Of a DNA stretch of 64,000 nucleotides, positions 44,684 through 59,627 are shown piece after piece (within the stretch, counting starts at the first letter, position 1; every line of letters starts with the position of its first letter). The stretch lies in NCBI GenBank assembly GCA_044866775.1, contig JBIOUG010000097.1, positions 1,852 through 65,851 on the forward strand, given 5' to 3'. Source of the stretch: Thermoanaerobaculia bacterium (GTDB taxonomy: Bacteria; Acidobacteriota; Thermoanaerobaculia; Multivoradales; UBA5704). Under the pieces are notes generated by a model. That model ran no database searches, was not told the DNA's origin, and was given only the letters and a program-made list of their open reading frames with translations. The position numbers and the translations under genes are program-made.

Positions 44684-44786
44684 GGGCGGGCTCAGGAGCC
44701 CGGCGCGAACGCTTTCGCGTTTTTTTGGAGCCCGGCGCGAAAATCTTCGCGCCTTAGGATCCCGGCGCGAAAGCCTTCGCGCCGAG
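44680..44786. repeat. Cluster of three REP-like palindromes between convergent genes
   Basis: CCCGGCGCGAA-N4-TTCGCG(CC) at ~44699, 44731 and 44761, preceded by GTAGGGGCGGG; a fourth copy lies at 60931. Confidence 0.75.
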
Positions 44787-47030
44787 GTCCCGCGCCAGCG
44801 CCTCGTAGGCGGCGGCGCTCTCCTCGGCGAGCAGGAAGCGGGCGTGGATGGCGGCCTTCTGCAGGTAGCCGAGCGCCCGCTCGGGCTGGCCGGCGGCGCG
44901 GTGGTGGTGGGCCAGGACGTCGTAGGCGCGCCCGCGCGCGCTGCTCTCGAGCCGCTCGAGCGCGGCGGCGACCTGAGCGTGCAGCACGCGCCGCCGCGCC
45001 GGATCGAGGCCCGCGTAGACGGCGTGGCGGATCGCGGCGTGCGCAAACTCGAAGCGGCCGCGCCGCGCGCCGCGCGCCCAGCGCACCAGGTCGTGCTCGG
45101 GGCCGCCGCTCCGCCACTGGCCGGTCGACTGGCGCAGGAGCCAGCGCTGGAGCAGCTCCTCGAGGGCGAACTCGACCACGGCCGGATGCTCGTCGGCGCC
45201 GAGCTGGAGCAGCGCCGGCTCGAAGCTCTGGCCGGCGACCGCGGCGAAGGCGAGGAGCCGCCGCGCCGAGGCGGGGAGGCGCAGCACCCGATCGCGGGCG
45301 AGCACGTCCACCGTCGCCGGCTGCGGCAGCCCGAGGTCGTCGAGCGGCCGCGCGAGCTGCCACCCCCCGGCCGCGCGCGGCTCGAGCGCGCCGCTGTCGT
45401 GCAGCAGGTTCACCAGCTCCGTCACCGCCAGCGGCAGGCCGCCGCCGCGGGCGACGAGGAGTCCCCCAAGCTCCGCCACCTGCCCCTCCGGCACCAGCGC
45501 GGTGGCGATCTCCCACACCGCGGCCGGGGTGAGGCGCGGCAGCTCGAACCGCACGCAGCCGGCGCCGGCCGGCGGCCGTGCCGCGGCGGAGCGCCGCGCC
45601 GCCGCGGCCTCCTCGTCGTCGCCAACGCCCGGGCGTGCGGCGGCCACGATCCAGGCCGGCGGCGGCAGGCGCTCGAGCACGTGCTCCAGCAGGTCGAGGC
45701 TCGCCGCGTCGGCCAGGTCGAGGTCGTCGAGGAAGACGACCAGCGGCTGGCGGCGCGCCGCCGCGAGGTCGCCCAGGAAGCGCGTCACCGCGGCGAAGAG
45801 CCGCCGGCGCCCCTCGCCGCCCGCGGCGGGCGGCACCGGCGTGAAGGCGCCGGGGGGCAGGGCGAAGGAGCGGGGGAGGAGGTGCGCGAGCGCCTCGAGC
45901 GCGGCGCGCGGCAGCGCCGCGAGCACCCGCTCGGCCGTCTCGCTGTCCTCGACCCGCGCCTGACCGAGCACCTCGACCCAGGGCAGGTAGGGTGACGGCG
46001 GCAGCAGCTCGGCGCCACTCCCCTTGAGCACCAGCGCCGGGCGCTGCGCCGTCGCCGCGTCGAGGAAGGTCTTGATCAGCCGGCTCTTCCCCACCCCGGC
46101 CTCGCCGACGACGACGCAGCAGCGCACGCCGCCGGCGAGGGCCTCCTGCCAGCTCTCGTCGAGCAGCGTCCAGCCGACCTCCCGCCCGACGAGCGGCACC
46201 AGCGGCCCGATCGGCGCCGCCTCGCCGGCCGGCGCCTCCGCCGGCGCCGCCTCGGCGAGGATCGACTCGTAGAGGGCGCGCGTCTCCTCGAGCGGCTCGA
46301 CCCCCAGCTCCTCGTGCAGCCGGCGGCGCAGCTCGTCGTAGTGGGCGAGGGCGCCGCTGCGGTGCCCGGAGAGCGCGGTCAAGCGCATCAGCTCGCGGTG
46401 GATGGGCTCGGCCAGCGGCTCGAGGGTGAGCAGGCGGCGCGCGTAGTGGATGCCGTAGCGATACTCGCCGCGCCCGCGGTAGCTCTCGACCAAGGCGCGC
46501 AGGGCCTCGATCGCCCCGTCGCGCAGCCGCGCCTGCTCGGTGAGCTGCCACTCCTCGAAGTCCTGGGCGTCCTTGACGAAGAAGCCGGCGAGGAAATCGC
46601 CGCGGTAGAGCTGCACCGCGGCGGCCAGGTGATGGGGATCGACGGCGTGGCCGCCGGCCGCCGGCCGCGGGCCGCCGCCGCCGAGGCGCAGCGCCTCTTC
46701 GAAGGCTTCGACGTCGAGCCAGACGTCGGCCGCCGGGTCGAGCCCCAGCTCCTGGTGGGTGCCGGTGACGAGCCGCTGCCCGGGGATCGCCGCGCGCAGG
46801 TTGTAGGCGGCCTGGCGCAAGGCGTGGCGCGCCGCCTCCGGCCCGCTCTCCCCCCACAGCAGCCCGGCCAGGTGGTCGCGGCTGAACGTCCGCCCGCGAT
46901 GGCAGACCAGGTAGGCGAGCAGCGCCCGCGCCTTCTGCGACTCGAAGCCGCCGGCCTGGCGCTCGCCGCACCAGACCGCGAAACCGCCGAGGAGGCGGAT
47001 GCGGAGGTTGGAAGAGGGGACCGTCTTCAC
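44754..47030 (-). CDS. SARP/AfsR-type regulator: OmpR-like HTH + BTAD + AAA ATPase
   Basis: IRLLGGF, ALLAYL, LYRGDFLAG, F.EW...E..RL, EP..ET..LY; Walker A GEAGVGKS; LDDL..AD; GGLPL; FAHAAIRHAVY. Confidence 0.9.
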   Translation of the reverse strand: MKTVPSSNLRIRLLGGFAVWCGERQAGGFESQKARALLAYLVCHRGRTFSRDHLAGLLWGESGPEAARHALRQAAYNLRAAIPGQRLVTGTHQELGLDPAADVWLDVEAFEEALRLGGGGPRPAAGGHAVDPHHLAAAVQLYRGDFLAGFFVKDAQDFEEWQLTEQARLRDGAIEALRALVESYRGRGEYRYGIHYARRLLTLEPLAEPIHRELMRLTALSGHRSGALAHYDELRRRLHEELGVEPLEETRALYESILAEAAPAEAPAGEAAPIGPLVPLVGREVGWTLLDESWQEALAGGVRCCVVVGEAGVGKSRLIKTFLDAATAQRPALVLKGSGAELLPPSPYLPWVEVLGQARVEDSETAERVLAALPRAALEALAHLLPRSFALPPGAFTPVPPAAGGEGRRRLFAAVTRFLGDLAAARRQPLVVFLDDLDLADAASLDLLEHVLERLPPPAWIVAAARPGVGDDEEAAAARRSAAARPPAGAGCVRFELPRLTPAAVWEIATALVPEGQVAELGGLLVARGGGLPLAVTELVNLLHDSGALEPRAAGGWQLARPLDDLGLPQPATVDVLARDRVLRLPASARRLLAFAAVAGQSFEPALLQLGADEHPAVVEFALEELLQRWLLRQSTGQWRSGGPEHDLVRWARGARRGRFEFAHAAIRHAVYAGLDPARRRVLHAQVAAALERLESSARGRAYDVLAHHHRAAGQPERALGYLQKAAIHARFLLAEESAAAYEALARDLGAKAFAPGS

Positions 47031-47096
47031 TCGGCGACCAGTTCGGGTGAGGCGAGCAGCCGAGCTGCTTCCCGCCTTACTGCGTTGACCCGATCT

Positions 47097-47134
47097 CCCT
47101 CACCCCTGGCCCCTCTCCCACATGGGAGAGGGGG
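47097..47134. repeat. Palindromic intergenic repeat (CCCTCACCCC..CCCCTCTCCC-loop-GGGAGAGGGG type)
   Basis: Stem CCCCTCTCCCA/TGGGAGAGGGG with 5' CCCTCACCCC leader, a widespread small dispersed repeat type. Confidence 0.7.
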
Positions 47135-47381
47135 ACGCTTGCGTGTTGAGTCCCCCCTCGTGGACTCTGCGGAGTCTAGCAGTGGCGGAGACGAAGGCCG
47201 TTACGTGCCAGTAGTTTAGCAGTCGTCGCCACGCTCACTCGGGGGCGCGGATCGCCTGACGATCTCCTGACGATCGCGGTGCAGACTGTTGCGTACCGCA
47301 GAGCACCAGACGTGCCGCGCTTCGGCAGGAGGGGCCGTGCGGCCCCTCTTGCCGTGCCTTCGGTCGAGAGGAGAGCTGACG

Positions 47382-49997
47382 ATGATCCCCCTACGTTCAA
47401 GGTTCCGGAGAGGACTCGGCATGGCGCTGCTGTGGACGGCGCTGGCGGCGAGCGCCGCCGTGGCGGCCCGCCCGCGCGCGGCCGTGGGACCGGGCAGCGG
47501 CCCCAAGTGCCTGCCGACCTGCAGCGCCGCCGACGGCCGCTTCCTCACCATCGCCGGCCAGAACTTCGTCACCCTCTCGGACACCGTGTTCACGCTCAAG
47601 ATCGGGGTGCCGGCGGGCGCCGCCACCTTCAGCGTCGGCTTCTTCGACGGCGAAAGCGGCGGCCTCAGCCTCGGGGGCTCGCACTGGGACAACGGCGTGC
47701 TGGCGGAGTACCACTACCGCCTGTCCTCGGACCCCGACAACGACGGCGTCCCCGACGCGCCGGTCGACCTGGTGCCGGGATTCCCGGCGGTCAGCTCGTT
47801 CGGCATGCCCGACAACGACTGGATCGACTTCACCGTCGCCACCACCCCCGGGGCCCAGGCGCCGAGCGGCAACTACTTCTACGTCCTCGAGATCGAGCTG
47901 CTGAACCCGCTGCTGACGACGCTCAACGCCTTCAAGGTGCGCACCGACGCCGTGGTCTCCGGTCTCGACGTCGAGCCGATCGCGCAGCCCTTCTCCTACA
48001 TCGCCACCTGGACCGGGCTCGCCGACATCACCATCATCTATCCGGGCTTCCCCGCCACCTCACCGACCACCTACGACGGCGTCTTCAGCTTCTGGTTCGA
48101 CGCCCCCCTGCCGCAGCCGGAGATGGCGGTCTGGGACGGCGACTTCGACCGCGGCAAGTTCGACGGCACGCAGCAGGACACCGACGACGCGGACACTCCG
48201 GGCGCTCCTTTCCTGCCGACCTGGGCGACGCCGGACGCCGTGTCCGAAGCCATCGCCGTCGGCGGCATCGGGTCGACCGGCGCGCCGCCGGACGACCGCA
48301 GCAGCGCCGGCACGGGGATCTATTTGGTGCGTCCCCCCTCGGTGCGTTACGAGCTGATCCACGACCTCACCGGCGCCACCTACCTCAACGACAACCCCTC
48401 CGGCAACCAGGAGTGGGAGCAGTTCAAGCTCTCGACCGCTCCGTTCGACGGCTCGGTCATGGATTACAGCGTCGCCGACATCCCGGCCGGCCTCTGGGAG
48501 CTGCGGGCGCAGGGCGTGGACATGCAGAACCTGAACGCCCTGCTCCTCCCCTTCCCGGTGCTCTGCGTCGACGAGCAGGGCGATCCGTGCCAGACGTTGC
48601 GCACGCTGCGCCTCGGCGACACCGTCTTCTCCGATCCCGACGGCGACGGCCTGCAGGACGCAGGCGAGCCGGGCATCCCGGGCGTCACCGTCGAGCTGCT
48701 CGACGCGGCCGGGGCCTTCGTCGCCAGCACGACGACCGATGCCGCCGGCCATTACGACTTCCAGGTGGAAGCGGGGACCTACACGGTGCGGGTGGCGGCG
48801 TCCAACTTCGCGCCCGGCGGCCGCCTCGCCGGCGCCGCTTCGACGACCGGCGGCGAGGAGCTTAGCCGCACGCTCGGCGACGCCATCGACCTCACCTACG
48901 ACTTCGGCTACCGCGGCAGCGGCGCGATCGGCGACTACGTCTGGTTCGACGGCGACGGCGACGGCATCAACGACGAGCCGCCGACCGCCGGTCTGGGCGG
49001 CGTCGTGCTGCGGCTCACCGAGGCCGGCCTCGACGGCGTCTTCGGCACCGGCGACGACATCGCGCTCGGCACGCAGACGACGGCCGCCAGCGGCATCTAT
49101 CCCCTCTTCACCGACCTCCTCGCCGGCCTCTACCGGGTGGACGTCGACGAGGCGACGCTGCCGGCCGGCGTCATGCTGACCACCGCCAACGAGCCGCTCG
49201 CCGTCACCCTGGCCGGCGGCGAGAGCTTCCTCGACGCCGACTTCGGCTACGGCGGCGAGGCCGGGGGCGCGAGCGGGGGCTTGGGCGACCGGGTGTGGCG
49301 CGACACCGACGGCGACGGCGTCCTCGACGCCTTCGAGGTCGGCATCGACGGCGTGCGCGTCGAGCTCGCGGGCGACCTCGACGGCGACGGCATCGCCGAG
49401 CTGACGCGCTTCGACATCACCGAGACGATGGCCGCCGTCGCCGGTCTCTACGGCTTCTCCGACCTGCCCGCCGGCGTCTACACCGTCACCGTCGTGCCCT
49501 CGACCCTGCCGGCCGGCCACGTCCAGACCTTCGACCTCGACGGACTCGCCACCCCGCACACCGCCCGCGTCACGCTAGAGGGTGACGAGACCCGGCTGGA
49601 CGTCGACTTCGGCTACCGCCCGCTGACGGCCCCGGGCGCCGGCACCCCCGGCTTCTGGAAGAACCACCCCGAGGCCTGGCCGGTCGAGACGATCACCATC
49701 GGCGGCGTCACCTACACCAAGGCGCAGGCGATCTGGTGGCTCGGGCAGGACGACAGCCACGACAAGACGATCACCCTCTTCCGCGCGCTGGTGGCGGCCA
49801 AGCTGAACGTGGCGATCGGCAACCCGGTCTCCTGCATCCAGACGGCGCTCGCCGCCGCCGACCAGTGGATGGCGACCTACGGCCCGGTGGGGAGCGGCGT
49901 GCGCGGGTCGAGCGTCGCCTGGAAGCTGGGCGAGCCGCTCTACCTGCGGCTCGACGCCTACAACAACGGGCGGCTGTGCGCGCCGCCGCGCAGCTAG
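47382..49997 (+). CDS. Secreted surface protein with three SdrD B-like domains and a C-terminal TPGFWKNH domain
   Basis: Signal peptide; three [LI]GD.VW/F.D.DGDG..D..E..G..GV...L...DFGY units with DxDxDG Ca-binding loops; GAGAGGAGAG RBS. Confidence 0.85.
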   Translation: MIPLRSRFRRGLGMALLWTALAASAAVAARPRAAVGPGSGPKCLPTCSAADGRFLTIAGQNFVTLSDTVFTLKIGVPAGAATFSVGFFDGESGGLSLGGSHWDNGVLAEYHYRLSSDPDNDGVPDAPVDLVPGFPAVSSFGMPDNDWIDFTVATTPGAQAPSGNYFYVLEIELLNPLLTTLNAFKVRTDAVVSGLDVEPIAQPFSYIATWTGLADITIIYPGFPATSPTTYDGVFSFWFDAPLPQPEMAVWDGDFDRGKFDGTQQDTDDADTPGAPFLPTWATPDAVSEAIAVGGIGSTGAPPDDRSSAGTGIYLVRPPSVRYELIHDLTGATYLNDNPSGNQEWEQFKLSTAPFDGSVMDYSVADIPAGLWELRAQGVDMQNLNALLLPFPVLCVDEQGDPCQTLRTLRLGDTVFSDPDGDGLQDAGEPGIPGVTVELLDAAGAFVASTTTDAAGHYDFQVEAGTYTVRVAASNFAPGGRLAGAASTTGGEELSRTLGDAIDLTYDFGYRGSGAIGDYVWFDGDGDGINDEPPTAGLGGVVLRLTEAGLDGVFGTGDDIALGTQTTAASGIYPLFTDLLAGLYRVDVDEATLPAGVMLTTANEPLAVTLAGGESFLDADFGYGGEAGGASGGLGDRVWRDTDGDGVLDAFEVGIDGVRVELAGDLDGDGIAELTRFDITETMAAVAGLYGFSDLPAGVYTVTVVPSTLPAGHVQTFDLDGLATPHTARVTLEGDETRLDVDFGYRPLTAPGAGTPGFWKNHPEAWPVETITIGGVTYTKAQAIWWLGQDDSHDKTITLFRALVAAKLNVAIGNPVSCIQTALAAADQWMATYGPVGSGVRGSSVAWKLGEPLYLRLDAYNNGRLCAPPRS

Positions 49998-50012
49998 GCG
50001 AAAGGAGGCGAC

Positions 50013-51548
50013 GTGCGCAGCCGGCCCTTCATCTGTGTGACCTTGCCCGTGGCGCTCTCCGTCTCGGTGCTGAGCGCCGCCGCCCGCCCGACACTGGCAC
50101 AGGAGCACGTGCCGGGGCAGCTTCTCGTCCGCTTCGCCAACGGCACCTCGGCGCTCGGCAAGCTCCTCACCCACACCCGCTGCGGCGGCACGGCCGTCGA
50201 CCTCCTCGACCTGATCGGAGTCGAGGTGGTGCAGGTCGTGCCGCTCCTCGAGGAGACGGCCGCCTCCTGCTACGGCGGTGACCCGTCCGTCGACTACGCC
50301 GAGCTCGACTACCTGGCGTCGGGCGACGCCACGCCCAACGACCCGTACTACGCCAGCCAGCAGTACGGCCCGCAGAAGGTCCAGGCGCCGGCGGCCTGGG
50401 ACATCACGACCGGCGACACCAACGTGCTGGCCGCCGTGCTCGACAGCGGCGCCGACTTCGCCCACCCCGACCTTGCGGGCAAGCTCGTCTTGGGCTGGGA
50501 CTACGTCAACAACGACTCCGACCCCAGCGACGACCACGGGCACGGCACGCACGTCGCCGGCATCCTCGGCGCCGCCACCAACAACCAGCAGGGCGTGGCG
50601 GGGATCGCCTGGCAGGTGCGCGTGCTGGCGGTCAAGGTACTCGACAAGAACAACAAGGGGAGCTACAGCAACATCGCCAAGGGCATCCTCTACGCCGCCG
50701 ACCAGGGCGCGCGCGTCATCAACCTGAGCCTCGGCGGCACCAGCGCCTCCTCGACGCTCCTCGACGCCGTCGAGTACGGCTGGGGAAAGGGCGCGCTGCT
50801 GGTGGCGGCGGCCGGCAACGGGGCGACGAGCGCTCCTTACTACCCGGCCGCCTACGCGCACGTCGTGGCGGTCGCCGCGACCGACGCCGCCGACGGCCGC
50901 TGGAGCCTCTCGAACTACGGCGACTGGGTGGCGCTCGCGGCGCCGGGCGACACGGTCTACAGCACCAACTGGAAGAGCGGCGTCTCGGGGTACCTGGCGC
51001 GCAGCGGCACCTCGCAGGCGGCCCCGCACGTCAGCGGCGTGGCGGCGCTGCTCCTGGCGCAGAACGGCGGCCGCACCAACGCCGAGCTGCGGACGCTGCT
51101 CGAGTCGACCGCCGACGACCTCGGCGCCGCCGGCCGCGATGTCTACTTCGGCTATGGACGGGTGAACGCCGCCCGCGCCCTCGGCGGCTCGCTCCCTCCA
51201 CCCGGCCAATCGCCGGCGCACATCGGCGACCTCGACGGCAGCGGCGCCGCCGGCGCCAAGAACTGGAAGGCGACGGTGACGGTCGGCGGCCACGACGGCG
51301 GCCACGGCGCTCTCGCCGGGGCGACGGTCTCCGGCGCCTGGGGGGGCGGCACCTCGGGCACCGCCTCGTGCACGACGGACGCGGCTGGCAGCTGCAGCGT
51401 CACCAGCCGCACGATCCAGAACAGCAAGTCCTCGGCGACCTTCACCGTGACGAACGTCAGCCACCCCACGAAGACCTACCAGCCGGCCGGCAATCACGAC
51501 GCCGATGGCGACAGCAACGGCACGCAGATCACCGTCGTCCGTCCCTGA
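50013..51548 (+). CDS. S8 subtilisin/thermitase-like serine protease with C-terminal beta-sandwich domain
   Basis: Signal peptide; catalytic triad VLDSG, HGTHVAG, SGTSQAAPHV; AAAGN oxyanion motif; AAAGGAGG RBS. Confidence 0.93.
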   Translation: MRSRPFICVTLPVALSVSVLSAAARPTLAQEHVPGQLLVRFANGTSALGKLLTHTRCGGTAVDLLDLIGVEVVQVVPLLEETAASCYGGDPSVDYAELDYLASGDATPNDPYYASQQYGPQKVQAPAAWDITTGDTNVLAAVLDSGADFAHPDLAGKLVLGWDYVNNDSDPSDDHGHGTHVAGILGAATNNQQGVAGIAWQVRVLAVKVLDKNNKGSYSNIAKGILYAADQGARVINLSLGGTSASSTLLDAVEYGWGKGALLVAAAGNGATSAPYYPAAYAHVVAVAATDAADGRWSLSNYGDWVALAAPGDTVYSTNWKSGVSGYLARSGTSQAAPHVSGVAALLLAQNGGRTNAELRTLLESTADDLGAAGRDVYFGYGRVNAARALGGSLPPPGQSPAHIGDLDGSGAAGAKNWKATVTVGGHDGGHGALAGATVSGAWGGGTSGTASCTTDAAGSCSVTSRTIQNSKSSATFTVTNVSHPTKTYQPAGNHDADGDSNGTQITVVRP

Positions 51549-51591
51549 ATCCGGGGGCGCCGCCGCAGGCATTCCGTCGCTCGCGGCGCGG

Positions 51592-51873
51592 GTGCGGGTG
51601 CCGGAGTCGGTGCTGTTCTGCGACCTCGACGGCGAGGCGGTGCTCCTCGAGTCGACGAGCGGACGCTACTTCGGCCTCGACGAGGTGGGGACGCGGATCT
51701 GGTCGCTGCTCGCCGCCGACGGCCGGGTCGGAACCGCCTTCGAGGCGCTGCTCGCCGAGTACGAAGTCGAGGCCGACCACCTGCGGCGCGAGCTCCTCGC
51801 TTTCGTCGCCACCCTGGCGGCACGGCGGCTGCTGGCGCTCGAGGCGGTAGGAGTGGCGGAGGAAAGGGCCTGA
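51592..51873 (+). CDS. PqqD-family RiPP recognition element (lasso B1-like); start uncertain
   Basis: LDGEAVLL...GRYFGLDEVGTRIWSLL...LLAEYEV.....ELLAFVATL...LL PqqD pattern. Confidence 0.9.
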   Translation: MRVPESVLFCDLDGEAVLLESTSGRYFGLDEVGTRIWSLLAADGRVGTAFEALLAEYEVEADHLRRELLAFVATLAARRLLALEAVGVAEERA

Positions 51874-53690
51874 GCGCCGTGCGCGGCAGCGTCGACTTCG
51901 CGCGCGCGACGACGGGCGCCGGAGAGCTCGCGGCGACCCTCGCCGGCGCAGTGCGCGGCGGACCGGACGACGGCGTCTGGCTGGCCGCGGACGCCCGGCT
52001 CGACAACCGCCCGGAGCTCCTCGCCACGCTCGGCCTCGCCGCCGCTGCGGACGACTCCCCGACCGACGCCGAGTTGATCCTCGCCGCCTGGCTGCGCTGG
52101 GGCGAAGGGACTCCCGAGCGCCTGCTCGGCGACTTCGCGTTCGCCGTCTGGGAGGCGCGGGCGCGGCGCCTGGTCTGCGTCCGCGACGGGCTGGGGATCA
52201 AGCCCCTGCACTACGCCCGCCCGGGATCGCTTCTCGTCGTCGCTGCGACGGCCGAACAGGTGCTGGAGCATCCGGCGGTGCCGTGCCGGCTCGACGAGAC
52301 GGCGGTCGCGCGCTACCTCGGCTCGCCCACCGACGACCCGGAGCGCAGCTTCTTCGCCGATGTTCACCCGCTGCCGCCCGGCTCGCTCCTCGTCGCCACC
52401 GCCGGCGGCTGCGTCGTGCGGCGCTGGTGGGAGCCGGCGCGCGCGGCGGGAACCGCCGCCCGGCCAGCGGGAGACGACGCCGAGGCGCTGCGCGAGCTGC
52501 TCGGCCGCGCCGTCGCGGACCGGCTGCGCGGCGCGGACGCCGCCGCCGGAATCTCGCTCTCCGGAGGCCTCGACTCGGGTTCGGTCGCAGCCCTCGCCCG
52601 CCGCGCCCTCGCCGGTCGCTCCGGCGCTCCGGCGCTGGTCGCGAGCTCCTGTGTCTTCGCGCGGCTGAAGCGGTGCGACGAGCGCGGCTACCTGCGGGCG
52701 CTCGCCGCCGAGCTCGATCTCGAGCTCGAAGAGGTGGCGGCCGAGCGCCGCTGGTTCCTCGGTCATCCGCAGGCGCTGCGCCCTGCGCTCGAGACTCCCT
52801 TTCAGGGCTGGGAGTGGGCCTTCGGCGAGCTCCTCGGCCGGCTCGCGCGGCGCGGAGTGCGCGTGCTCTTGACGGGCCAGGCCGGCGACGAGCTCCTGGG
52901 CGGCAGCCGGCTCGTCTATGCCGACCGGCTGCTGCGCGGCGACCTCACCGCAGTCCGGGAGATCGCGCGCTATGCCGCCGCGCACCCCGGCATGCGGCGG
53001 CGCATTCTCTATCTCTATTTCGGCCAGCCGCTCCTGCCGCGATGGGCCGACGGCACCCTCCGCAGGCTGCGCGGGTTGCCCACCGACGCTCTTCCTTCCT
53101 GGATCTCTCCCGCCTTCGCGCGCCGCACCGGGCTCGCCGAGCGGGCGCGGCGCCGGCCGGCGCCGGGACGGATGGCGCGCGCGGCGATCTACGCCAGCAC
53201 GGTCGGCGATCCCGCCTACCGGCGCGCGGTTGGCTGGTACGACCGGGTCGCGGCGCCGTACGGCATCGAGGTGCGCCACCCGTTTCTCGACCGCCGGCTG
53301 GTCGAGTTCGTGCTGGCGCTTCCACCCGACCGACTGTTCCGCGCCGGTGGCTGGAAGCCGCTGCTGCGCGAGGCGATGGCGGGAATCCTTCCGGAGATCG
53401 TCCGCCGGCGCCCGGACAAGGCCTCCTTCAGCAGCTTCGTCGATCTCGCGCTGCGGGAGCGCGAGGCGGCGCGCGTCGAGGCTCTGCTGACCGATCCCTT
53501 GGTGGTCGAGCTCGGGTTCGTGGAGGGCGAGCGGCTGCAGGCCTCCTATCGCCGTTACCGTGACGGCGCGCTCGCGGAGGAGCACCTGATGCTGTGGTAC
53601 GTCGTGACGCTCGAGATCTGGCTGCGGCACCACAGTGCGAGGCTCGGGCTCGCCGGCACCGGCCGGCAGGCGCTGCGGCCGGCGGCCTGA
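51870..53690 (+). CDS. Lasso peptide cyclase (asparagine synthase-like isopeptide-bond enzyme)
   Basis: No catalytic Cys1; ADARLDNR, GDFAFAVW, LSGGLDS, TGQAGDE and RHPFLDRRLVEF motifs; lies between RRE and precursor; probable CTG start (track start GTG 51879). Confidence 0.85.
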   Translation: MSAVRGSVDFARATTGAGELAATLAGAVRGGPDDGVWLAADARLDNRPELLATLGLAAAADDSPTDAELILAAWLRWGEGTPERLLGDFAFAVWEARARRLVCVRDGLGIKPLHYARPGSLLVVAATAEQVLEHPAVPCRLDETAVARYLGSPTDDPERSFFADVHPLPPGSLLVATAGGCVVRRWWEPARAAGTAARPAGDDAEALRELLGRAVADRLRGADAAAGISLSGGLDSGSVAALARRALAGRSGAPALVASSCVFARLKRCDERGYLRALAAELDLELEEVAAERRWFLGHPQALRPALETPFQGWEWAFGELLGRLARRGVRVLLTGQAGDELLGGSRLVYADRLLRGDLTAVREIARYAAAHPGMRRRILYLYFGQPLLPRWADGTLRRLRGLPTDALPSWISPAFARRTGLAERARRRPAPGRMARAAIYASTVGDPAYRRAVGWYDRVAAPYGIEVRHPFLDRRLVEFVLALPPDRLFRAGGWKPLLREAMAGILPEIVRRRPDKASFSSFVDLALREREAARVEALLTDPLVVELGFVEGERLQASYRRYRDGALAEEHLMLWYVVTLEIWLRHHSARLGLAGTGRQALRPAA

Positions 53691-53707
53691 GCGAGCGAGG
53701 ACGAGCC

Positions 53708-53908
53708 GTGGCGAGAGCGAACGACCGGTCCCGTGAGCGCGCAGGCGAGCGGCGGCACGCCCCGGCGCCAGTCCCACCGGCAGGCCAGCGCCGTAAGCCC
53801 TGGCGCCGGCCGGAGCTCCTCGAATGGGGCTCTCTCGGCGACCTGACCCATGGTCCCCTGGCTCCGCCCGAGGACTTCCCCAACCCCGGCGGCTCGCAGC
53901 CGGTCTAG
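53708..53908 (+). CDS. Lasso peptide precursor (leader ...KPWRRPELLEWGSLGDLTH; core GPLAPPEDFPNPGGSQPV)
   Basis: WxxPxL RRE-binding motif, G..x4..T(-2), core Gly1 with E7/D8; GAGGA RBS then GTG. Confidence 0.82.
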   Translation: MARANDRSRERAGERRHAPAPVPPAGQRRKPWRRPELLEWGSLGDLTHGPLAPPEDFPNPGGSQPV

Positions 53909-53924
53909 CGAGGCGCGTTCCGGC

Positions 53925-54956
53925 GTGCGTACCTGGCGTCTCTTCGACCTCAGCCTCGCGAGCGACTTTCCGTTCGCCAGCGCGCTCGCCGCGCCCGGCG
54001 CGAAGGCGCTGGCCCCGGGCTCGGACCGCGGTCGCCCCGACCTGACCTTCTCCCACACCGGCGGCTCCCCTGCCGCGGGCGACCTCGCCGGCCGCGCGCC
54101 GCTCTACACGACGCCCTTCCGCGGCCGCGACGGCTCGCCGTACTGCCGCCTCTACCGCACGCCCGCCGGCGCGGCGCTGCGCTTCGCAGGCACCGACTTC
54201 CACCTCGGCGCCCGGGAGATCCGCGCCCGCGGCACGGCGCCTGCCGCGGAGGTCGAGGAGCAGCTCCTAGGGCCGGTGCTCGCCTTTTGGCTCGAGCAGC
54301 GGGGAATCGTCGCGCTCCACGCTTCGGCGGTGGCGCTGGACGGCGCCGCCGTCGCCTTCCTCGCCCCGAGCGGCGCCGGCAAGAGCTCGCTCGCCGCGGC
54401 GCTCGTCGCGACGGGAGGCGAGCTGGTGACCGACGACGTGCTCGCCGTCGACGAGCGCGGCGGCCGGCCGCACGCCCGCGCCGGCTACCCGCAGCTCCGC
54501 CTGGCGCCGAGCGCGGCGGCGCGCTGGGCCGGCGGCCGCGTGGCGGCGCCGCGGCGCGACGGCGACAAGTGCCGCGTGCCGGTCGGCGACGGCGGCTGGG
54601 GCGCCTTCTGCGGCGCGCCCGTGCCGCTCGCGCGCCTCGTGCTGCCGAGGCGCGGCGGCCCGGCGGCGGCGGTCGAGCTCGCGCCGCTCGGCCGGTGCGA
54701 GGCGCTGATCGAGCTGGTACGGCACTCGTACACCCCGCGACTGACGGAGGCGGCGGGGCTGCAGCCGGCGCGCTTGGCGCGGCTGGCGCGGCTCGTCGCG
54801 CAGGTGCCGGCGCGGCTGCTGGTCTATCCGTCCGGTTACGACCGCCTGCCCGAGGTCGTCGCGGCGCTGCGGCGCGAGCTCGCGGCGAGCGCGGCGGCGG
54901 CGGCGGACGGCGTGCTAGGATCGCCGCATCGCTTCAAGGCGGCACCACCGAGCTGA
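53925..54956 (+). CDS. HPr-kinase-related kinase (PadeK/lasso-associated type)
   Basis: LHASAV, APSGAGKSS P-loop, LVTDD and PQLRL motifs. Confidence 0.85.
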   Translation: MRTWRLFDLSLASDFPFASALAAPGAKALAPGSDRGRPDLTFSHTGGSPAAGDLAGRAPLYTTPFRGRDGSPYCRLYRTPAGAALRFAGTDFHLGAREIRARGTAPAAEVEEQLLGPVLAFWLEQRGIVALHASAVALDGAAVAFLAPSGAGKSSLAAALVATGGELVTDDVLAVDERGGRPHARAGYPQLRLAPSAAARWAGGRVAAPRRDGDKCRVPVGDGGWGAFCGAPVPLARLVLPRRGGPAAAVELAPLGRCEALIELVRHSYTPRLTEAAGLQPARLARLARLVAQVPARLLVYPSGYDRLPEVVAALRRELAASAAAAADGVLGSPHRFKAAPPS

Positions 54957-55013
54957 ACGAGGGGGACGGCGCTCGCAGGGGGCGTGCTGTAGGCAAACCA
55001 CAAGGAGGAGAGG

Positions 55014-55583
55014 ATGAAGCGTTGGCTGACGATTGCCGCCCTCACGGGGAGCCTCCTCGTGCTCGGCGGGCCCGCGATGGCACAGGTCGAGGAGTACGAG
55101 GGAGACAACCAGCACCGCATGGCGCTGGCGATCGGGGCGGGGCTGGTCGAGCCGGGCGAAGAGGTGGAGACCTATCTCATGGCAGCGCTGCGCATCCGCG
55201 TCGGCGGGCGGACCGACAACCAGCGCGGGCAGCGGCCCAACGAAGGGGTCGAGGCGCACCTCGAGCCGGAGATCGGCTATTGGGAGAACGACAAGGGGGC
55301 GAGCGACCTGCTGGCGGGGGTCAACCTGATCGGCGTCGTCCCCTTCGGCAACGTCGACAGCTTCTTCGGCGTCGGCGCCGGCCTGCACTTCGTCGACGGC
55401 GAGCTGCTCTCAACGCCGGACGAGGACAGCGCGACCAAGATCGGCGCCAACTCGCAGTTCGGCATCGACGTCTATCTCTCCGACAGTTGGAGCCTCTTCG
55501 GCACCGGCCGCTTCGACCTGGTGCAGGACGCCCAGGACGACATCCAGGGGAAGATCTACCTCGGAGTGCGCGGGCGGTTCTAG
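55014..55583 (+). CDS. Small outer-membrane beta-barrel protein (OmpA/OmpW-like)
   Basis: Signal peptide, GVGAGLH and FGIDVYL strands, C-terminal GVRGRF; AGGAGAGG RBS. Confidence 0.82.
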   Translation: MKRWLTIAALTGSLLVLGGPAMAQVEEYEGDNQHRMALAIGAGLVEPGEEVETYLMAALRIRVGGRTDNQRGQRPNEGVEAHLEPEIGYWENDKGASDLLAGVNLIGVVPFGNVDSFFGVGAGLHFVDGELLSTPDEDSATKIGANSQFGIDVYLSDSWSLFGTGRFDLVQDAQDDIQGKIYLGVRGRF

Positions 55584-56032
55584 CTGGCCTCCGGGTCGGG
55601 CGGCGTCTCGATGCTCGCGGCAGCCGCCGGCGGTTGCTCCTTGCGCCGCGTCGAGCGCCGCCGGCGCGGGTTCACGCCGTAGGCGATGAGGCGCTCGCTC
55701 TCCGGGCCGTAGTGGCCCTGCAGCGCGGCGACGATGCGGTTGCGCAGCCGCCGCAGGCGCAACGTCGAATCCTGCCGCCGCCGGGTCAGCTCGCGCAGCC
55801 GCGCGGTCGCCGTCGCGTGTTCCTGATCGATCGCGATCATCTCCGCCAGCTCCTTGCCGAGAGCGGCGTGATCGTGCCGCACGTGCGGCACCTCGTCGAG
55901 CGCGCGCTCCACCTCCGCGTACAGGTAGCGCCAGTGCTTGAGCTTGTCGGACGACCGCCGGGCGGCGTAGACGACCGTCGTGCGCGACGTACGACGGTCG
56001 GTTGCCGCGCATGACGGCCGCCTGCGGCGCAC
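55580..56032 (-). CDS. Small coiled-coil hypothetical protein with basic tail; 5' end overlaps the 20-bp array, start uncertain
   Basis: Heptad helix ending HYGPESERLIAYGVNPRRRR; good codon bias from ~55950 to 55580. Confidence 0.6.
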   Translation of the reverse strand: MRRRRPSCAATDRRTSRTTVVYAARRSSDKLKHWRYLYAEVERALDEVPHVRHDHAALGKELAEMIAIDQEHATATARLRELTRRRQDSTLRLRRLRNRIVAALQGHYGPESERLIAYGVNPRRRRSTRRKEQPPAAAASIETPPDPEAS

Positions 56033-56150
56033 GACGGCCGGTAGCGCCCGCCGAGGATCGGTTGCCGCTCACGACGGTCGTCTATGGCTGACGACGGTCG
56101 TCTGTCGCGCACGACGGTCGTCGGCTCCAAGCGACGAGCGCGCATCGATC
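55951..56150. repeat. 20-bp-period array: conserved ACGAC(G/C)G(T/C)CG + variable 10-mers, 10 units
   Basis: Cores start at 55951, 55971, 55991, 56011, 56031, 56051, 56071, 56091, 56111 and 56131. Confidence 0.85.
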
Positions 56151-56284
56151 GCGACCCGCAGGAGCCTCCGGCGAACGATCTGCGCAGCAGAGCAGCGTTG
56201 TCTAGCCTACACGATGCCGCCTTGCCCGCCAACTTCGCTCCAGCACGCGGCAACTCATGCCGCACGCCCCAAAGTCGGAATGGT

Positions 56285-58303
56285 CGCGGCGGGATCGGCA
56301 TGCGCGGCGGTGCCGTGCGCCATATGAGATCGATCTCCTCTGCCGTCACCAGAGGTCAACGACAAGATCTTCTTTCTCCCCGCTTCGGATCGGTACCTGC
56401 TCGCGCTCCTCAACTCTCCGCTGCTCTTCGCCTGGCTGAATGCCGCGTAGTACGAGCACTTCCGCAGCTCCCACCAGAAGCAGCCTTGATCCCAGCGTTC
56501 CACCAGCCGCTCGCGCCAGCCACTCAAATGACCATGTAGAGCAGGAAAGCTCGCCGCGAAAGCGTTCTCGGCCTCCGCGCCCGCCAGCGACGACCACGGC
56601 CACTGGTGGTCGTCGCTCGACTTGAGCAGGATCATCCACAGCCCGACCCACTCCGCGCGCCACCGCCGCACGTCTTGTCCTCGCAGATACGGCTTCAGGA
56701 TCTCCGCCGAGCGGCCGTCCTCGGCGACAAGCCGGTCCCGCGTGGCGGTGTCGACGAGAAACGCCTCGTTGAGGCCCGTCTTGATCCCGTAATACGGCTT
56801 CACCCCCGCGTACTCCAGGAGCGGCACGCCCCGCGCGCGGATCTTCGCCATCAACGCCTCGACGCCCGCCGGCTCCAGCACCCACGGCCCGCCGCCGAGC
56901 CGCTCGCGGGGCACGTCGAAGCCTCCCTCCTCCACCTGCCGCCCGAGGTCGTCGAGCCGTACCTCGTCGCGCGAGATCACGGACACCCGCGGCACGGGGG
57001 GCGGCGCCTCCGGCTGCGGCTTCGCGAGGACGACGATCGACGGGAACACGTCCGCCTCCGGGAAGATCTCCTTGGCGTGACCCAGGTCCACCAGCGTCTC
57101 GAGCCAAGCGTGCTCTGCGAGCAGGCGGCGCAGCGGCTCGGCGTAGCCCGCCCGCAGCCACTTGTTGGTCACCACGAAGGAGAGGCGGCCGCCCGGTCGA
57201 AGCAGCTCGAGCCCGCGCTCGAAGAAGTAGACGTAGAGGTCGGCCACGCCGTGGTAGGCGCGGAAGCGGTGGGCGAGATAGGGCTTGAGGCTGCCGAGGA
57301 GCTCCTGGCGGACGTACGGCGGGTTACCGACGACCACCTCGAAGCCGCCGTCGGCGAACACCTCCGGGAAAGCCGCCTGCCAGTCGAGCGCGCTGCGGAG
57401 GTCGACCTCCGGATCGGCGACCAGGCTGTTGCCGATCCGGATCGTGCGATCGAGGTCGGTCAGCCGCTTGCCGCGCTCCGCCGTCTTGATCCAGATCGAC
57501 AGGCGGCAGATCTGGATCGCCTCCTCGTTCAGCAGGCGGGGTCCAGCACCCGCACCCGTTCGACCTCTCCGATCCAGGCGTCCCAGAAGCGGAGCAGCGC
57601 CTCCTGCTGCGGCTTGTTGAGCGCGGTAGGGTCGTAGGCCCGCGGCTCGTCCAGAGCCTTGACCGCCGTTCCCTCCGCTCGCGCCTGCTGCTTGCGGCGC
57701 AGCGCCTCGAAGCGTTCGTCGAGGACGCGGTGGAGCGCGTGGCCGACGATGAACCGCGTCACGACGCGCGGTGTGTAGAAAGCTCCCTCGCGCCGCCGCC
57801 GGGAGACGCGCTCGACGGCGAAGCTGCCGCCCGCCAGCTCCTGCTCGATGCGCTCCAGGTCGGTGATCGACTGCTCGAAGATGTGGCCGAGGATCTCCAC
57901 GTCGACGAGCTGGGCGACGGCGCCTTCCTCGATCGCCGCGGGCGGCGAGCGGTAGTCGTAGTCGCCGAGCCGCTTGAACTCGGCGAAGACCTCGTCGGGA
58001 ACTTGCAGGCGGTCGAGACCCGGGTCGCGGGCGAAGAGTCCGCCGTTGTAGCCGGGGATCCCGAGGGCGCCGCTGCCGCCGTCGATCGCCTGGAACAGGC
58101 CCTTGAAGGTCTCCCATTGCGTGCGCGGGTTGTAGGGGTCGCGGTGCGCGAAAGCGCGCCGGAGCGTCTCGGCCGGGAGCAGCCCGCGGTCCTCCGCGAA
58201 GGCCACGAAGAGCACCCGGTCGAGGAGCTTCTGCGTGTAGAGCAGCCGCGGCGCGGGGAGCGAGGACCTCGGCGCGGAAGAGCGGCTTGCGTTCGACCGG
58301 CAT
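56285..58303 (-). pseudogene. Type IIG (Eco57I/TaqI-like) restriction-modification gene with deletions, frameshifts and a small inversion
   Basis: QKLLDRVLFVAFAED, YNGGLF, LGHIFEQS, GAFYTP, LDPAC, IGNSL, VVGNPPYVRQE, KTGLNEAF, WWELR and IWRTAPPRMP fragments spread over different frames. Confidence 0.85.
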
Positions 58304-58432
58304 GAGTGCGAGAACCAGACGAAGTCTATCGTGCTCCGAGGCACGCTTCTTGCTCGTTGCGATGCGCGAATCCGCCTGGGCGCGGAATGATCTCTCGATG
58401 TGCGATCGCAATGATCGAAAAGGAGGTGGGCG

Positions 58433-58942
58433 GTGGCAGAGAGCGGAAAGAAGCCAACGAACGAGACGCTGGGCAGCGCCGTGAGCACGGCGGCCTCGAC
58501 GCCGTCCGGCCGCTCGACGGCTCGTCGCGCGACGGGTGGAACGACCGGCGGCGCCGCGCGCGCGGCGGCCAAGGCCAAGAGCACGGCGGCGAAGGTGCGG
58601 AAGACGCTGCGCGCGAAGACCGCCGGTCGCGGCAAGAAGGTGGCGGCGGCCGCGGCCGCGGCGGCCGGGCTCGCGGCGGCGGCGGCCGGCCTCGCGGCGG
58701 CGCGGCGCAGCGCGAAGCGTAAGTCGTCGTCGAAGAGCGCCAAGAGCTCGAGCCGGTCCGCGAAGAAGAGCGGCGGCGCCAAGAAGAGCAGCACGAAGCG
58801 GAGCAGCGCCGCGAAGAAGGGCAGCGGCACGAAGCGCCGCAGCGCTGCCAAGAAGAGCGGCGGCACGAAGCGGGGCGGCGCCGCGAGGAAGGGCGGCGGC
58901 GCGAAGCGCGGCGCCGCGTCGCCGAACGTCACCAGCAGCTAG
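58433..58942 (+). CDS. Histone H1-like Lys/Ala/Ser-rich basic protein
   Basis: AAAGGAGG RBS; AKKxxG(T/A)KRxxA repeats; strongly basic; central Ala-rich stretch. Confidence 0.7.
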   Translation: MAESGKKPTNETLGSAVSTAASTPSGRSTARRATGGTTGGAARAAAKAKSTAAKVRKTLRAKTAGRGKKVAAAAAAAAGLAAAAAGLAAARRSAKRKSSSKSAKSSSRSAKKSGGAKKSSTKRSSAAKKGSGTKRRSAAKKSGGTKRGGAARKGGGAKRGAASPNVTSS

Positions 58943-59081
58943 ACGGACAGGCTTCTCCCACACGGCGGCCGGCGCGGCAGGGCGAGCGCTCCCCCTCCGC
59001 GCCGGCTTCGGCGTGTGCCATCTTGCCGCTTCGCGCCCGCAGCGCTTGCCAGCGCCGCGCGCTTGTGCATAACCTCCCCCC

Positions 59082-59627
59082 ATGCAGCAGCCGGAGGAGA
59101 GCGGCGCCACGCAGGTGGAGGTCCCGGCGCCCGCCGTCAGAGTGCTGATGCCCTCGCCGCTCGGCGTGCTCGGGCTCGAGCTCGCCGGCACCGTGGTCAC
59201 CCGCGTGCGCATCGACCTGCCGCCCGCGGACCACGACGGCTACACGCCGCTGCACGACATCGAGGGCGATTTCCTGGAGGAGGTCTGCGGGCGCTTCGCC
59301 GAGTACTTCGCCGGCGCGCGGCGCAAGCTCGAGGTGGACTTCGACCTCTGCGCCTGCGGCCTCGAGCCGTTCGCGCGGCGCGTGCTGCGCGAGACGGCGA
59401 AGATCCCCTACGGCAAGACGCGTACGTATCGCGCGGTGGCGGAAGGGGCCGGCCGGCCCGAGGCCTACCGGCAGGTGCTCGCCGTGCTGGCCGAGAACCC
59501 GCTGCCGATCGTCATCCCGTGCCATCGCGTGGTGGCGAACCGCACCGGGGTCGGCAGCTACGTCGGCGGCTGGGAGCGGAAGGTCTGGCTCCTGCGGATG
59601 GAGGAGGAGGGGCTGGAGAGCGACTGA
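59082..59627 (+). CDS. ogt: Methylated-DNA--protein-cysteine methyltransferase
   Basis: SPLG, EYFAG, IPYGKTRTY and NPLPIVIPCHRVV active-site motifs. Confidence 0.92.
   Translation: MQQPEESGATQVEVPAPAVRVLMPSPLGVLGLELAGTVVTRVRIDLPPADHDGYTPLHDIEGDFLEEVCGRFAEYFAGARRKLEVDFDLCACGLEPFARRVLRETAKIPYGKTRTYRAVAEGAGRPEAYRQVLAVLAENPLPIVIPCHRVVANRTGVGSYVGGWERKVWLLRMEEEGLESD

Follow-up and report, generated by a model that had tools for sequence, protein, structure and literature searches.

A kinase-type lasso peptide gene cluster without its own B2 leader peptidase, linked to an SdrD-like secreted protein, in a soil Thermoanaerobaculia genome

Among the described gene clusters for phosphorylated lasso peptides, those closest to the locus reported here are paeninodin (pade), pseudomycoidin (psm), ThcoK/SyanK, and bsf of Bradymonas sediminis. 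They contain a split B1 protein, an Asn-synthase-type cyclase, and an HprK-like kinase with His, GxGKS, and Asp-Asp motifs, and their precursors carry the leader motif [Y/W]xxPxL at positions −17 to −12 and a small residue at +1. According to the available portions of the reports on these systems, the kinase acts on the linear precursor with the help of B1 (PMC9266682, PMC10368454, PMC6993621). A locus sharing these features is present in G000, a metagenome-assembled genome (MAG) of a soil Thermoanaerobaculia bacterium (Acidobacteriota; 5.8 Mb, 196 contigs, 92% complete). We analyzed it within a 64-kb stretch of contig C97, hereafter the window; G, L, and C numbers denote the genomes compared, the fetched loci, and the contigs of G000, respectively. 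Unlike the described clusters, the one in the window has no B2 leader peptidase, ABC exporter, or nucleotidyltransferase, and it adds a SARP-type (Streptomyces antibiotic regulatory protein) regulator, a large secreted protein with SdrD repeats, an S8 protease, and an outer-membrane barrel (Table 1). The regulator and the operon divergent from it are hereafter called the island. The locus is a genuine cluster for a small, probably phosphorylated lasso peptide without a leader protease of its own, and we lean, at slightly better than even confidence, toward the island being a satellite lasso peptide locus that is served by a B2 in trans.

Because the G+C content of the window is ca. 74%, genes were called by third-position GC and then assigned to families by Pfam and NCBIfam profile searches. 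All seven operon open reading frames (ORFs) were open and had the third-position GC bias typical of genuine genes. The coordinates, the gene list, and the divergent regulator given in an earlier note on this DNA, which had been made from the sequence alone, were correct by third-position GC and Pfam. The precursor product of 66 amino acids (VARANDRSRERAGERRHAPAPVPPAGQRRKPWRRPELLEWGSLGDLTHGPLAPPEDFPNPGGSQPV) starts at a GTG eight bases downstream of AGGA. Its leader contains Trp32 (−17), Pro35 (−14), Leu37 (−12), Gly41 (−8), and Thr47 (−2), and the 18-residue core contains Gly49 (core 1), Glu55 and Asp56 (core 7 and 8), and Ser63 (core 15). This arrangement matches the lasso pattern of a [Y/W]xxPxL leader, Thr at −2, Gly, Ala, Ser, or Cys at +1, and Asp or Glu at core 7–9. 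The same pattern was observed in 26 of 26 related precursors, all with Tyr at the first motif position, and the homologous precursors occupy the same position in the relatives. In the accessible parts of two reports, [Y/W]xxPxL...T-x/G is the motif of lasso leaders that depend on B2 and on a RiPP (peptide made by ribosomes and modified after translation) recognition element (RRE) (PMC10368454; PMC13381572).

The proteins that would act on this precursor also have the expected motifs. The RRE scored 55.8 bits against the NCBIfam model lasso_PqqD_Bac, below its cut-off of 80, and a profile built from 17 RREs matched TbiB1 (5v1u), the nearest solved chain, at 77 bits. The best NCBIfam model for the cyclase was the lasso cyclase NF033535 (325 bits, below the cut-off of 525), and the SGGLDS ATP-binding loop was found at residue 228. 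Although the Pfam and NCBIfam scores of the kinase were weak (22–33 bits), its motif residues His157, GAGKS 175–179, and Asp195-Asp196 were conserved in all 20 aligned kinases, and its start overlaps the 3′ end of the precursor gene by 59 nt. A C-terminal Ser as the phosphate acceptor, as in the paeninodin type, was not found: the precursor ends in Val, and its conserved Ser is the fourth residue from the end, which corresponds neither to the terminal Ser of paeninodin nor to Ser3 of the Bsf type. The locus is therefore a kinase-type lasso cluster in all tested features but three, namely the lack of B2 in cis, the lack of an exporter in cis, and a conserved Ser that is not C-terminal. On the side of the acceptor residues, a Gly-(Gly/Ser)-(Ser/Thr) motif, three to four residues before the end, is common to the window-type cores. 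Cores of the second cluster type described below (L009 8940–9140, L050, L051, and L052) have Ser or Thr at core position 3, the position phosphorylated by BsfK of Bradymonas.

The absence of B2 was examined over the whole genome. A search with PF13471 (B2) found none on C97 and exactly one match above the cut-off in the genome, at C6:31271–31612 (82.3 bits; next best 21.1 bits), and a 15-sequence B2 profile did not match the six-frame translation of the window. A search with PF00664 (ABC_membrane) likewise found none on C97 or C6; its nine matches in the genome are on C188, C74, C176, C54, C195, C142, C119 (two), and C64. The earlier note had stated that neither B2 nor an ABC exporter is in the window, which these searches bore out, and the genome-wide PF13471 search that it had proposed led to the single B2 in a second lasso cluster. 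This cluster on C6 is complete and lies on the minus strand, with genes for an S8 protease (489 aa), a 1502-aa PorU/C25-type protein, a cyclase, a 66-aa precursor, a P-loop kinase, an RRE, and B2, whose Cys and His are invariant in the alignment of 15 sequences. Identities between the window and C6 clusters were 32% for the cyclases, 43% for the RREs, 33% for the kinases, and 35% for the S8 proteases, values that indicate old paralogues.

To place the window among its relatives, a single-protein scan returned only nine loci, all distant matches (best 36% identity), and a wider set was obtained from a genome-wise search and an alignment-based scan. In total, 24 loci including the window were compared, together with 61 related genomes of the family; 17 of the loci (L039–L049, L066, L068, L069, and L072–L074) were selected by cyclase similarity alone. 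The cyclase relatives are Thermoanaerobaculia MAGs. A close orthologue of the window cyclase is missing from its own genus (best 37%), and orthologues of 40–53% identity occur in other genera and in the sister family. In a FastTree phylogeny, it fell into a clade of 12 members (support 0.96), in which B2 was present within the fetched stretch for 10 of the 11 others, the remaining one (L069) being cut by a contig end. This distribution indicates that the absence of B2 beside the window cyclase is derived.

Over all 24 loci, B2 was found in the fetched stretch of 14, was missing from eight (the window, L146, L151, L047, L048, L049, L072, and L073), and could not be scored in two that are cut before its usual place (L069 and L152). 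Its position varies: it lies between the RRE and cyclase genes in G010, G027, and G020; upstream of the cyclase in G026; convergent after the kinase in G009; convergent just upstream of a divergent kinase in G061, after the SdrD gene, and in G066, after two S8 genes; directly upstream of the housekeeping groES-groEL genes adjoining the cluster in G008, G031, G036, G084, and L066; and in the cluster in L074 and L097. The linkage of B2 to groES-groEL in five relatives (e.g., L063 5467–8008, L066 13933–16519, and L148 14794–17699, with GroEL 91–96% identical between genomes) is an observation in its own right, and B2 may be co-transcribed with the chaperonin genes there. Among the 61 family genomes, 44 have at least one B2, with a maximum of three per genome.

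Within the genus, in G001, a one-contig genome, and in G004, an island occupies precisely the position that it has in the window. The flanks are collinear with those of the window, both upstream (epimerase, 89% identity; glycosyltransferase-like gene, 79%) and downstream (MGMT-domain gene, 76–77%; PEGA protein, 58%; GT2 glycosyltransferase, 82%; sulfatase, 74%). The islands themselves are less similar (regulator, 51%; SdrD-like protein, 37%; cyclase, 31–32%; kinase, 49–50%; barrel, 63%). With 31–63% identity in the island against 74–89% in the flanks (window versus L146 and L151), the island is a cassette that stays at one site and is either hypervariable or has been replaced repeatedly. The islands of G001 and G004 have neither B2 nor an RRE. 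Thus B2 is absent from the syntenic island in all three genus genomes that have it, and all three keep a C6-type cluster with RRE and B2. In G001, the single PF13471 match of the genome is in the C6-type cluster, 55 kb from the island, as is the only lasso-type PqqD; the G001 island precursor nevertheless has a canonical Tyr leader, Thr(−2), and a Gly-Gly-Ser tail. In G004, the strong B2 and PqqD matches are both in the C6-type cluster. In G018, groEL and the same glycosyltransferase-like gene border the island, so that a single loss of the groESL-B2 flank in the genus is most likely. In the sister family, G037, G048, and G057 have SdrD-linked lasso loci without B2 and one strong B2 each on another contig.

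Other loci deviate in their B components in different ways. In L043 (G009:C317), which has the SdrD-like gene together with cyclase, precursor, kinase, and B2, neither tblastn nor a profile detected an RRE; the B components dropped thus differ between lineages. In the B2-less L048 (6168–7382) and L073 (11883–13169), the RRE forms the C-terminal end of an ORF of ca. 400 aa, whose N-terminal part has a phosphoribosyltransferase-like acidic motif, read by eye; a different partner enzyme could be fused to the RRE there.

The system may work as follows. Transcription of the divergent operon is probably activated by the SARP-type regulator. The operon's own RRE would bind the precursor through the WxxPxL leader motif, and the HprK-like kinase would first phosphorylate the linear precursor, most likely at core Ser15 in the conserved Gly-Gly-Ser near the C-terminus. 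The leader would then be cut after Thr-His (residue 48) by the B2 cysteine protease from the C6 cluster, and the cyclase would join Gly1 to Asp8 (or Glu7) to give an 18-residue class II lasso peptide, which would finally be exported. The SdrD-like protein and the S8 protease would be exported separately via Sec and function extracellularly, within or upon the polysaccharide matrix specified by the genes around the island. Since Thr(−2) is preserved in the precursor and the operon still has its RRE, a B2-type enzyme is likely still used rather than none. The earlier note had offered three alternatives, B2 acting in trans, an involvement of the S8 protease, or a surface- or matrix-associated RiPP system with different logic. 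The first is the best supported, with one B2 in the C6 cluster and with B2-less genus islands in genomes that carry a C6-type B2.

Several points weigh against a B2 borrowed from C6. According to the part of the pseudomycoidin study available, PsmB1/B2 failed to cut a close non-cognate precursor, and B1/B2 pairs can be strict (PMC6993621). The two RREs of the genome are only 43% identical, so that docking of the C6 B2 on the window RRE is not a given. The genome is a draft (92% complete, 196 contigs), and in view of a leader-like ORF at the end of C188, another cluster equipped with a B2 may have escaped assembly. The window is also alone among the 27 precursors in having Trp instead of Tyr at −17. 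As described in the accessible text on the linear polyphosphorylated peptides (LPP), the Tyr or Trp residue drives RRE discrimination between two systems in one genome and can change RRE selectivity (PMC13381572). Trp(−17) of the window may serve to separate the two pathways of the genome at the stage of the RRE. In the LF[R]DL segment, the window RRE has Cys in place of the Arg of 15 of 16 relatives. Co-variation of this change with the leader Tyr-to-Trp change was considered and dropped, because the described position of the Tyr/Trp pocket is between β4 and helices 1–3 (PMC13381572).

The chief rival to a trans-acting B2 is that the island is dead or decaying, with a precursor that is never matured and genes kept by recent history or for the secreted proteins. 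The missing B2, the divergence of the island proteins far beyond that of the flanks within the genus, and the further loss of the RRE in G001 and G004 would fit such a remnant. However, the seven ORFs are all open with the third-position GC bias of real genes, the catalytic motifs are intact, the precursor retains every conserved leader and core position, and a B2-less island is kept in three species of the genus, so that we regard decay as unlikely. It is quite unlikely, in our estimate, that an unrelated housekeeping protease removes the leader and no B2 is needed, as for pseudomycoidin in E. coli and B. subtilis. In the portion of that report available, psmCAD without B1/B2 still yielded a lasso peptide and a leaderless core was cyclized efficiently, but leader removal without B1/B2 was the limiting step (PMC6993621); moreover, the retained RRE and Thr(−2) of the window would be unconstrained if B2 were not used. 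The cognate B2 might instead lie in the unassembled part of the draft genome, a case for which the 92% completeness in 196 contigs, the leader-like ORF at the end of C188, and the peripheral position of the relatives' B2 upstream of groES-groEL could be cited. Here, groES-groEL lies in the interior of contig C136 and is not preceded by a B2, the island flanks are contiguous and syntenic with those of G001 and G004, which are B2-less there as well, and the one-contig genome G001 has a single B2; we consider this case distinctly unlikely.

A replacement of B2 by the S8 protease is the least probable of these explanations, and we rate it as very improbable. The S8 gene is in the operon directly upstream of the RRE gene, and its stop overlaps the RRE start. 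There is also a precedent for an RRE-helped serine protease replacing B2, the SpI-like LppS of the linear polyphosphorylated peptides, in the excerpted account of that system (PMC13381572). The window S8 has an Asp144/His177/Ser332 triad in the subtilisin order (DSG 144, HGTH 177, and GTS 332), a C-terminal extension, a Sec-type signal peptide, read from the sequence without a predictor, and a fervidolysin N-terminal pro-domain. The signal peptide and the inhibitor-type pro-domain suggest activity outside the cytoplasm, whereas ATP-dependent cyclization needs the cut core inside. Among the 61 family genomes, S8 orthologues at E ≤ 1e-60 were found only in G066, as two tandem copies (67% and 65% identity) directly after the closest homologue of the window SdrD-like protein (59%) and directly before B2; in G009, a 50% partial S8 match lies elsewhere in the genome. 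An S8 gene was present in two of the 24 related loci and absent from the other 22. These results indicate that S8 is not a B2 substitute; it travels with the secreted protein and coexists with B2. The role in leader removal suggested in the earlier note is thus unsupported, whereas its argument from the signal peptide for an extracellular role agrees with a secreted S8. S8 most likely processes the SdrD-like secreted protein or other matrix proteins.

The linkage of the SdrD-like protein to the lasso genes is strongly conserved. Its ORF opens at TTG 47289, and the ATG at 47382 is preceded by a GAGGAG ribosome-binding site. The protein consists of a signal peptide, an N-terminal domain of ca. 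400 aa, three SdrD_B repeats, and a helical C-terminal domain (49635–49994). The gene adjoins the lasso genes in 15 of the 17 loci for which cyclase similarity was the sole criterion of choice. Of the other two, L045 is truncated by the end of its contig, and L073 gave no more than a weak 48-bit match. Across the homologues, the number of SdrD_B repeats varies from 0 to more than 20, and the two terminal domains are constant (N-terminal, 35–58% identity to the window sequence in the alignment; C-terminal, ca. 118 aa with 59% mean column identity and two conserved Cys). A profile of the C-terminal domain scored above 130 bits in 18 of 37 genomes (G000–G036) that were also scanned with the cyclase. 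In at least 14 of the 18, this match was no more than 4 kb from a listed cyclase match; G014, G026, G030, and G032 had no partner among the matches listed. Library-wide, the profile found 5119 cluster representatives, 577 of them at E ≤ 1e-30, and in most of the 150 matches listed the match ends a few residues from the C-terminus of the protein. The pairing with the lasso cyclase reaches a Chloroflexi MAG (L072), an Anaerolineales MAG (L074), and a Kapaibacterium MAG (L097). In L097 (3552–20986), an RRE-B2-cyclase-kinase cluster is flanked on either side by paralogous genes, six in all, whose products share both terminal domains of the window protein. A comparable pairing, here of the C6-type cluster with a C25/PorU-like protein, occurs in G001, G004, two Competibacteraceae MAGs, and a Promineifilum MAG. 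According to the earlier note, its proposal would fall if relatives carried B2 at the locus and the S8 and SdrD linkage were not conserved. B2 does lie in or next to the relatives' clusters and the S8 linkage is not conserved, both of which count against the proposal, but the SdrD linkage is conserved.

Neither terminal domain of the SdrD-like protein could be assigned to a named family. Pfam matched only SdrD_B and related β-sandwich models (best stretches 441–510) and named neither domain, and NCBIfam matched only the repeat region 410–717. Like staphylococcal MSCRAMM SdrC/SdrD, the protein has three SdrD_B (B-repeat) β-sandwich modules; unlike them, it has unrelated, unnamed N- and C-terminal domains and belongs to a diderm organism. 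The full-length models of MSCRAMM SdrC/SdrD scored far below their cut-offs (NF000535, 84.9 bits against 1700; NF012181, 79.8 bits against 2500). In ESM Atlas, both terminal domains matched only unnamed clusters (scores 0.88–0.91). A model of the C-terminal domain (predicted local distance difference test score, pLDDT, 95.8) gave no Foldseek match at E ≤ 0.001 and only generic helical matches by VIA-align (best Z 6.2), and a model of the N-terminal domain (pLDDT 74.7) gave only low-scoring β-sandwich matches (TM ≤ 0.21); neither model thus had a convincing counterpart among PDB folds.

The features of the island and its boundary are summarized in Table 1. Along the seven operon genes, the intergenic gaps are, in order, 15, −44, 5, 17, −59, and 57 bp. 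The regulator has the OmpR-type winged helix and BTAD domain of SARP/AfsR-type proteins, plus an AAA ATPase domain, and its homologues (37–55% identity) flank the SdrD-like gene in L039, L040, L041, L043, L049, L145, L146, L148, L149, L151, and L152. The direct repeat in the divergent promoter region has one mismatch and an 11-nt spacing and is a candidate regulator site. Such 11-nt spacing of tandem direct repeats is the geometry expected for SARP sites. The repeat was absent from all 150 other fetched loci, and no sigma-70-like consensus was found in the divergent promoter region. Homologues of the barrel (44–63% identity) lie directly after the kinase in L066, L148 (same place as L068), L146, L149, L151, and L152, and a barrel homologue follows the kinase-RRE pair in L045.

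Table 1 Features of the island and its boundary in the window.
Feature	Position	Strand	Evidence and remarks
SARP-type regulator, 758 aa	44754-47030	-	Trans_reg_C 27.8 bits, BTAD 86.2 bits, AAA_16 103 bits; divergent from operon
Divergent promoter region	47031-47381		Tandem 11-nt direct repeat 47250-47271
Secreted SdrD-repeat protein, 871 aa	47382-49997	+	Three SdrD_B stretches, Pfam 161.6 bits
Secreted S8 subtilase, 511 aa	50013-51548	+	Peptidase_S8 188.9 bits, fervidolysin-type pro-domain
RRE/B1 leader-binding protein, 122 aa	51505-51873	+	PqqD 60 bits
Lasso cyclase (Asn-synthase-like macrolactam synthetase), 603 aa	51879-53690	+	Asn_synthase 179.7 bits
Precursor peptide, 66 codons	53708-53908	+	Leader 1-48, core 49-66
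HprK-like peptide kinase, 368 aa	53850-54956	+	Weak Hpr_kinase_C, 22.3 bits; catalytic motif intact
Small outer-membrane beta-barrel, 189 aa	55014-55583	+	Weak OMP_b-brl, 21.7 bits, below cut-off; signal peptide; last gene of operon
Insertion at boundary, outside the system	55580-59212	-	150-aa multi-copy ORF and Eco57I-type restriction-modification gene

The 3.5-kb insertion at the downstream boundary is specific to the window genome and missing at the syntenic place in G001 and G004, where a homologue of window 59082–59627 follows within ca. 0.6 kb after the barrel gene. Its 150-aa ORF has ca. nine paralogues in the genome (27–46% identity). The insertion was ruled out as the cause of the B2 loss, because B2 is missing from G001 and G004 as well, where there is no insertion. 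Elsewhere in the genome, C188 38423–40089 (L150 8423–10089) contains the leader-like ORF mentioned above (Tyr-x-x-Pro-x-Leu...Thr-Gly), which has two in-frame stops and is separated from the contig end by 91 bp. A PF01841 transglutaminase-like gene (360 aa) is oriented divergently from it, and genes for a LysR regulator, an ABC exporter, and a ManC-type nucleotidyltransferase are close by; a third lasso-like locus, either decayed or unassembled, may be present here.

The large exopolysaccharide (EPS) locus that the earlier note placed next to the island is real. Window 1–44683 encodes Poly_export, a Wzz/P-loop chain-length protein, 3′-phosphoadenosine 5′-phosphosulfate synthesis, GT1 and GT2 glycosyltransferases, and a carbamoyltransferase. 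Since this locus lies upstream and the PEGA protein, GT2, and sulfatase genes lie downstream, the island is embedded in a polysaccharide locus. An Asn-synthase homologue at ca. 13370–14137 within the EPS locus is 33–37% identical to the N-terminal part of both lasso cyclases, and is probably an EPS amidotransferase rather than a third cyclase. The idea of a surface- or matrix-associated RiPP system, also raised in the earlier note, gains from this embedding and from the SdrD linkage in 15 of 17 loci; as a whole, that reading is only partly supported. A literature search combining lasso peptide, surface protein, exopolysaccharide, and SARP returned nothing relevant. No paper joining 'lasso peptide' and 'Thermoanaerobaculia' was found either; the supplements of PMC10368454 and PMC13381572 and the RODEO datasets, which the search did not cover, may list such loci.

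The nearest parallel to the genomic setting is that of the LPP and neighboring paeninodin-like clusters of Bacillota, as far as the available part of their description goes (PMC13381572). In both cases, a genome has two related RRE-dependent systems, which differ in Tyr or Trp at the first leader-motif position; the LPP and paeninodin-like clusters of Bacilli likewise lie inside polysaccharide biosynthesis loci, and one cluster of the pair lacks a canonical part, namely the cyclase and B2 in LPP and B2 in the window. The two differ in that LPP has its own serine leader peptidase and no cyclase, whereas the window has a cyclase and no dedicated peptidase. In addition, the window is from Acidobacteriota and has no exporter or nucleoside triphosphate transferase.

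We tentatively suggest, as a possibility that we consider less than probable, that the lasso peptide and the SdrD-like protein belong together as the two parts of a single SARP-switched extracellular system in polysaccharide or matrix loci, in which the phosphorylated lasso peptide would serve the secreted protein or the matrix as ligand, lock, or regulator, and that the lasso loci of this clade are organized as a B1/B2 hub with borrowing satellites. For phosphorylated lasso peptides, the accessible text of PMC13381572 notes a placement in capsule loci and speculates on a biofilm role. Placement in a polysaccharide locus recurs here in a distant phylum, and a partner family with two undescribed domains accompanies the cyclase across Acidobacteriota, Chloroflexota, and a Kapaibacterium MAG. 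In this clade, a genome keeps a single leader protease, and in some cases a single RRE, which its lasso loci apparently share, so that genome-mining rules requiring B2 in the cluster would miss or mislabel such loci. Both the recurring partner and the sharing of B2 are testable with a handful of genes in a standard heterologous host. If the suggested system exists, the SdrD-like protein would be the first testable partner for phosphorylated lasso peptides.

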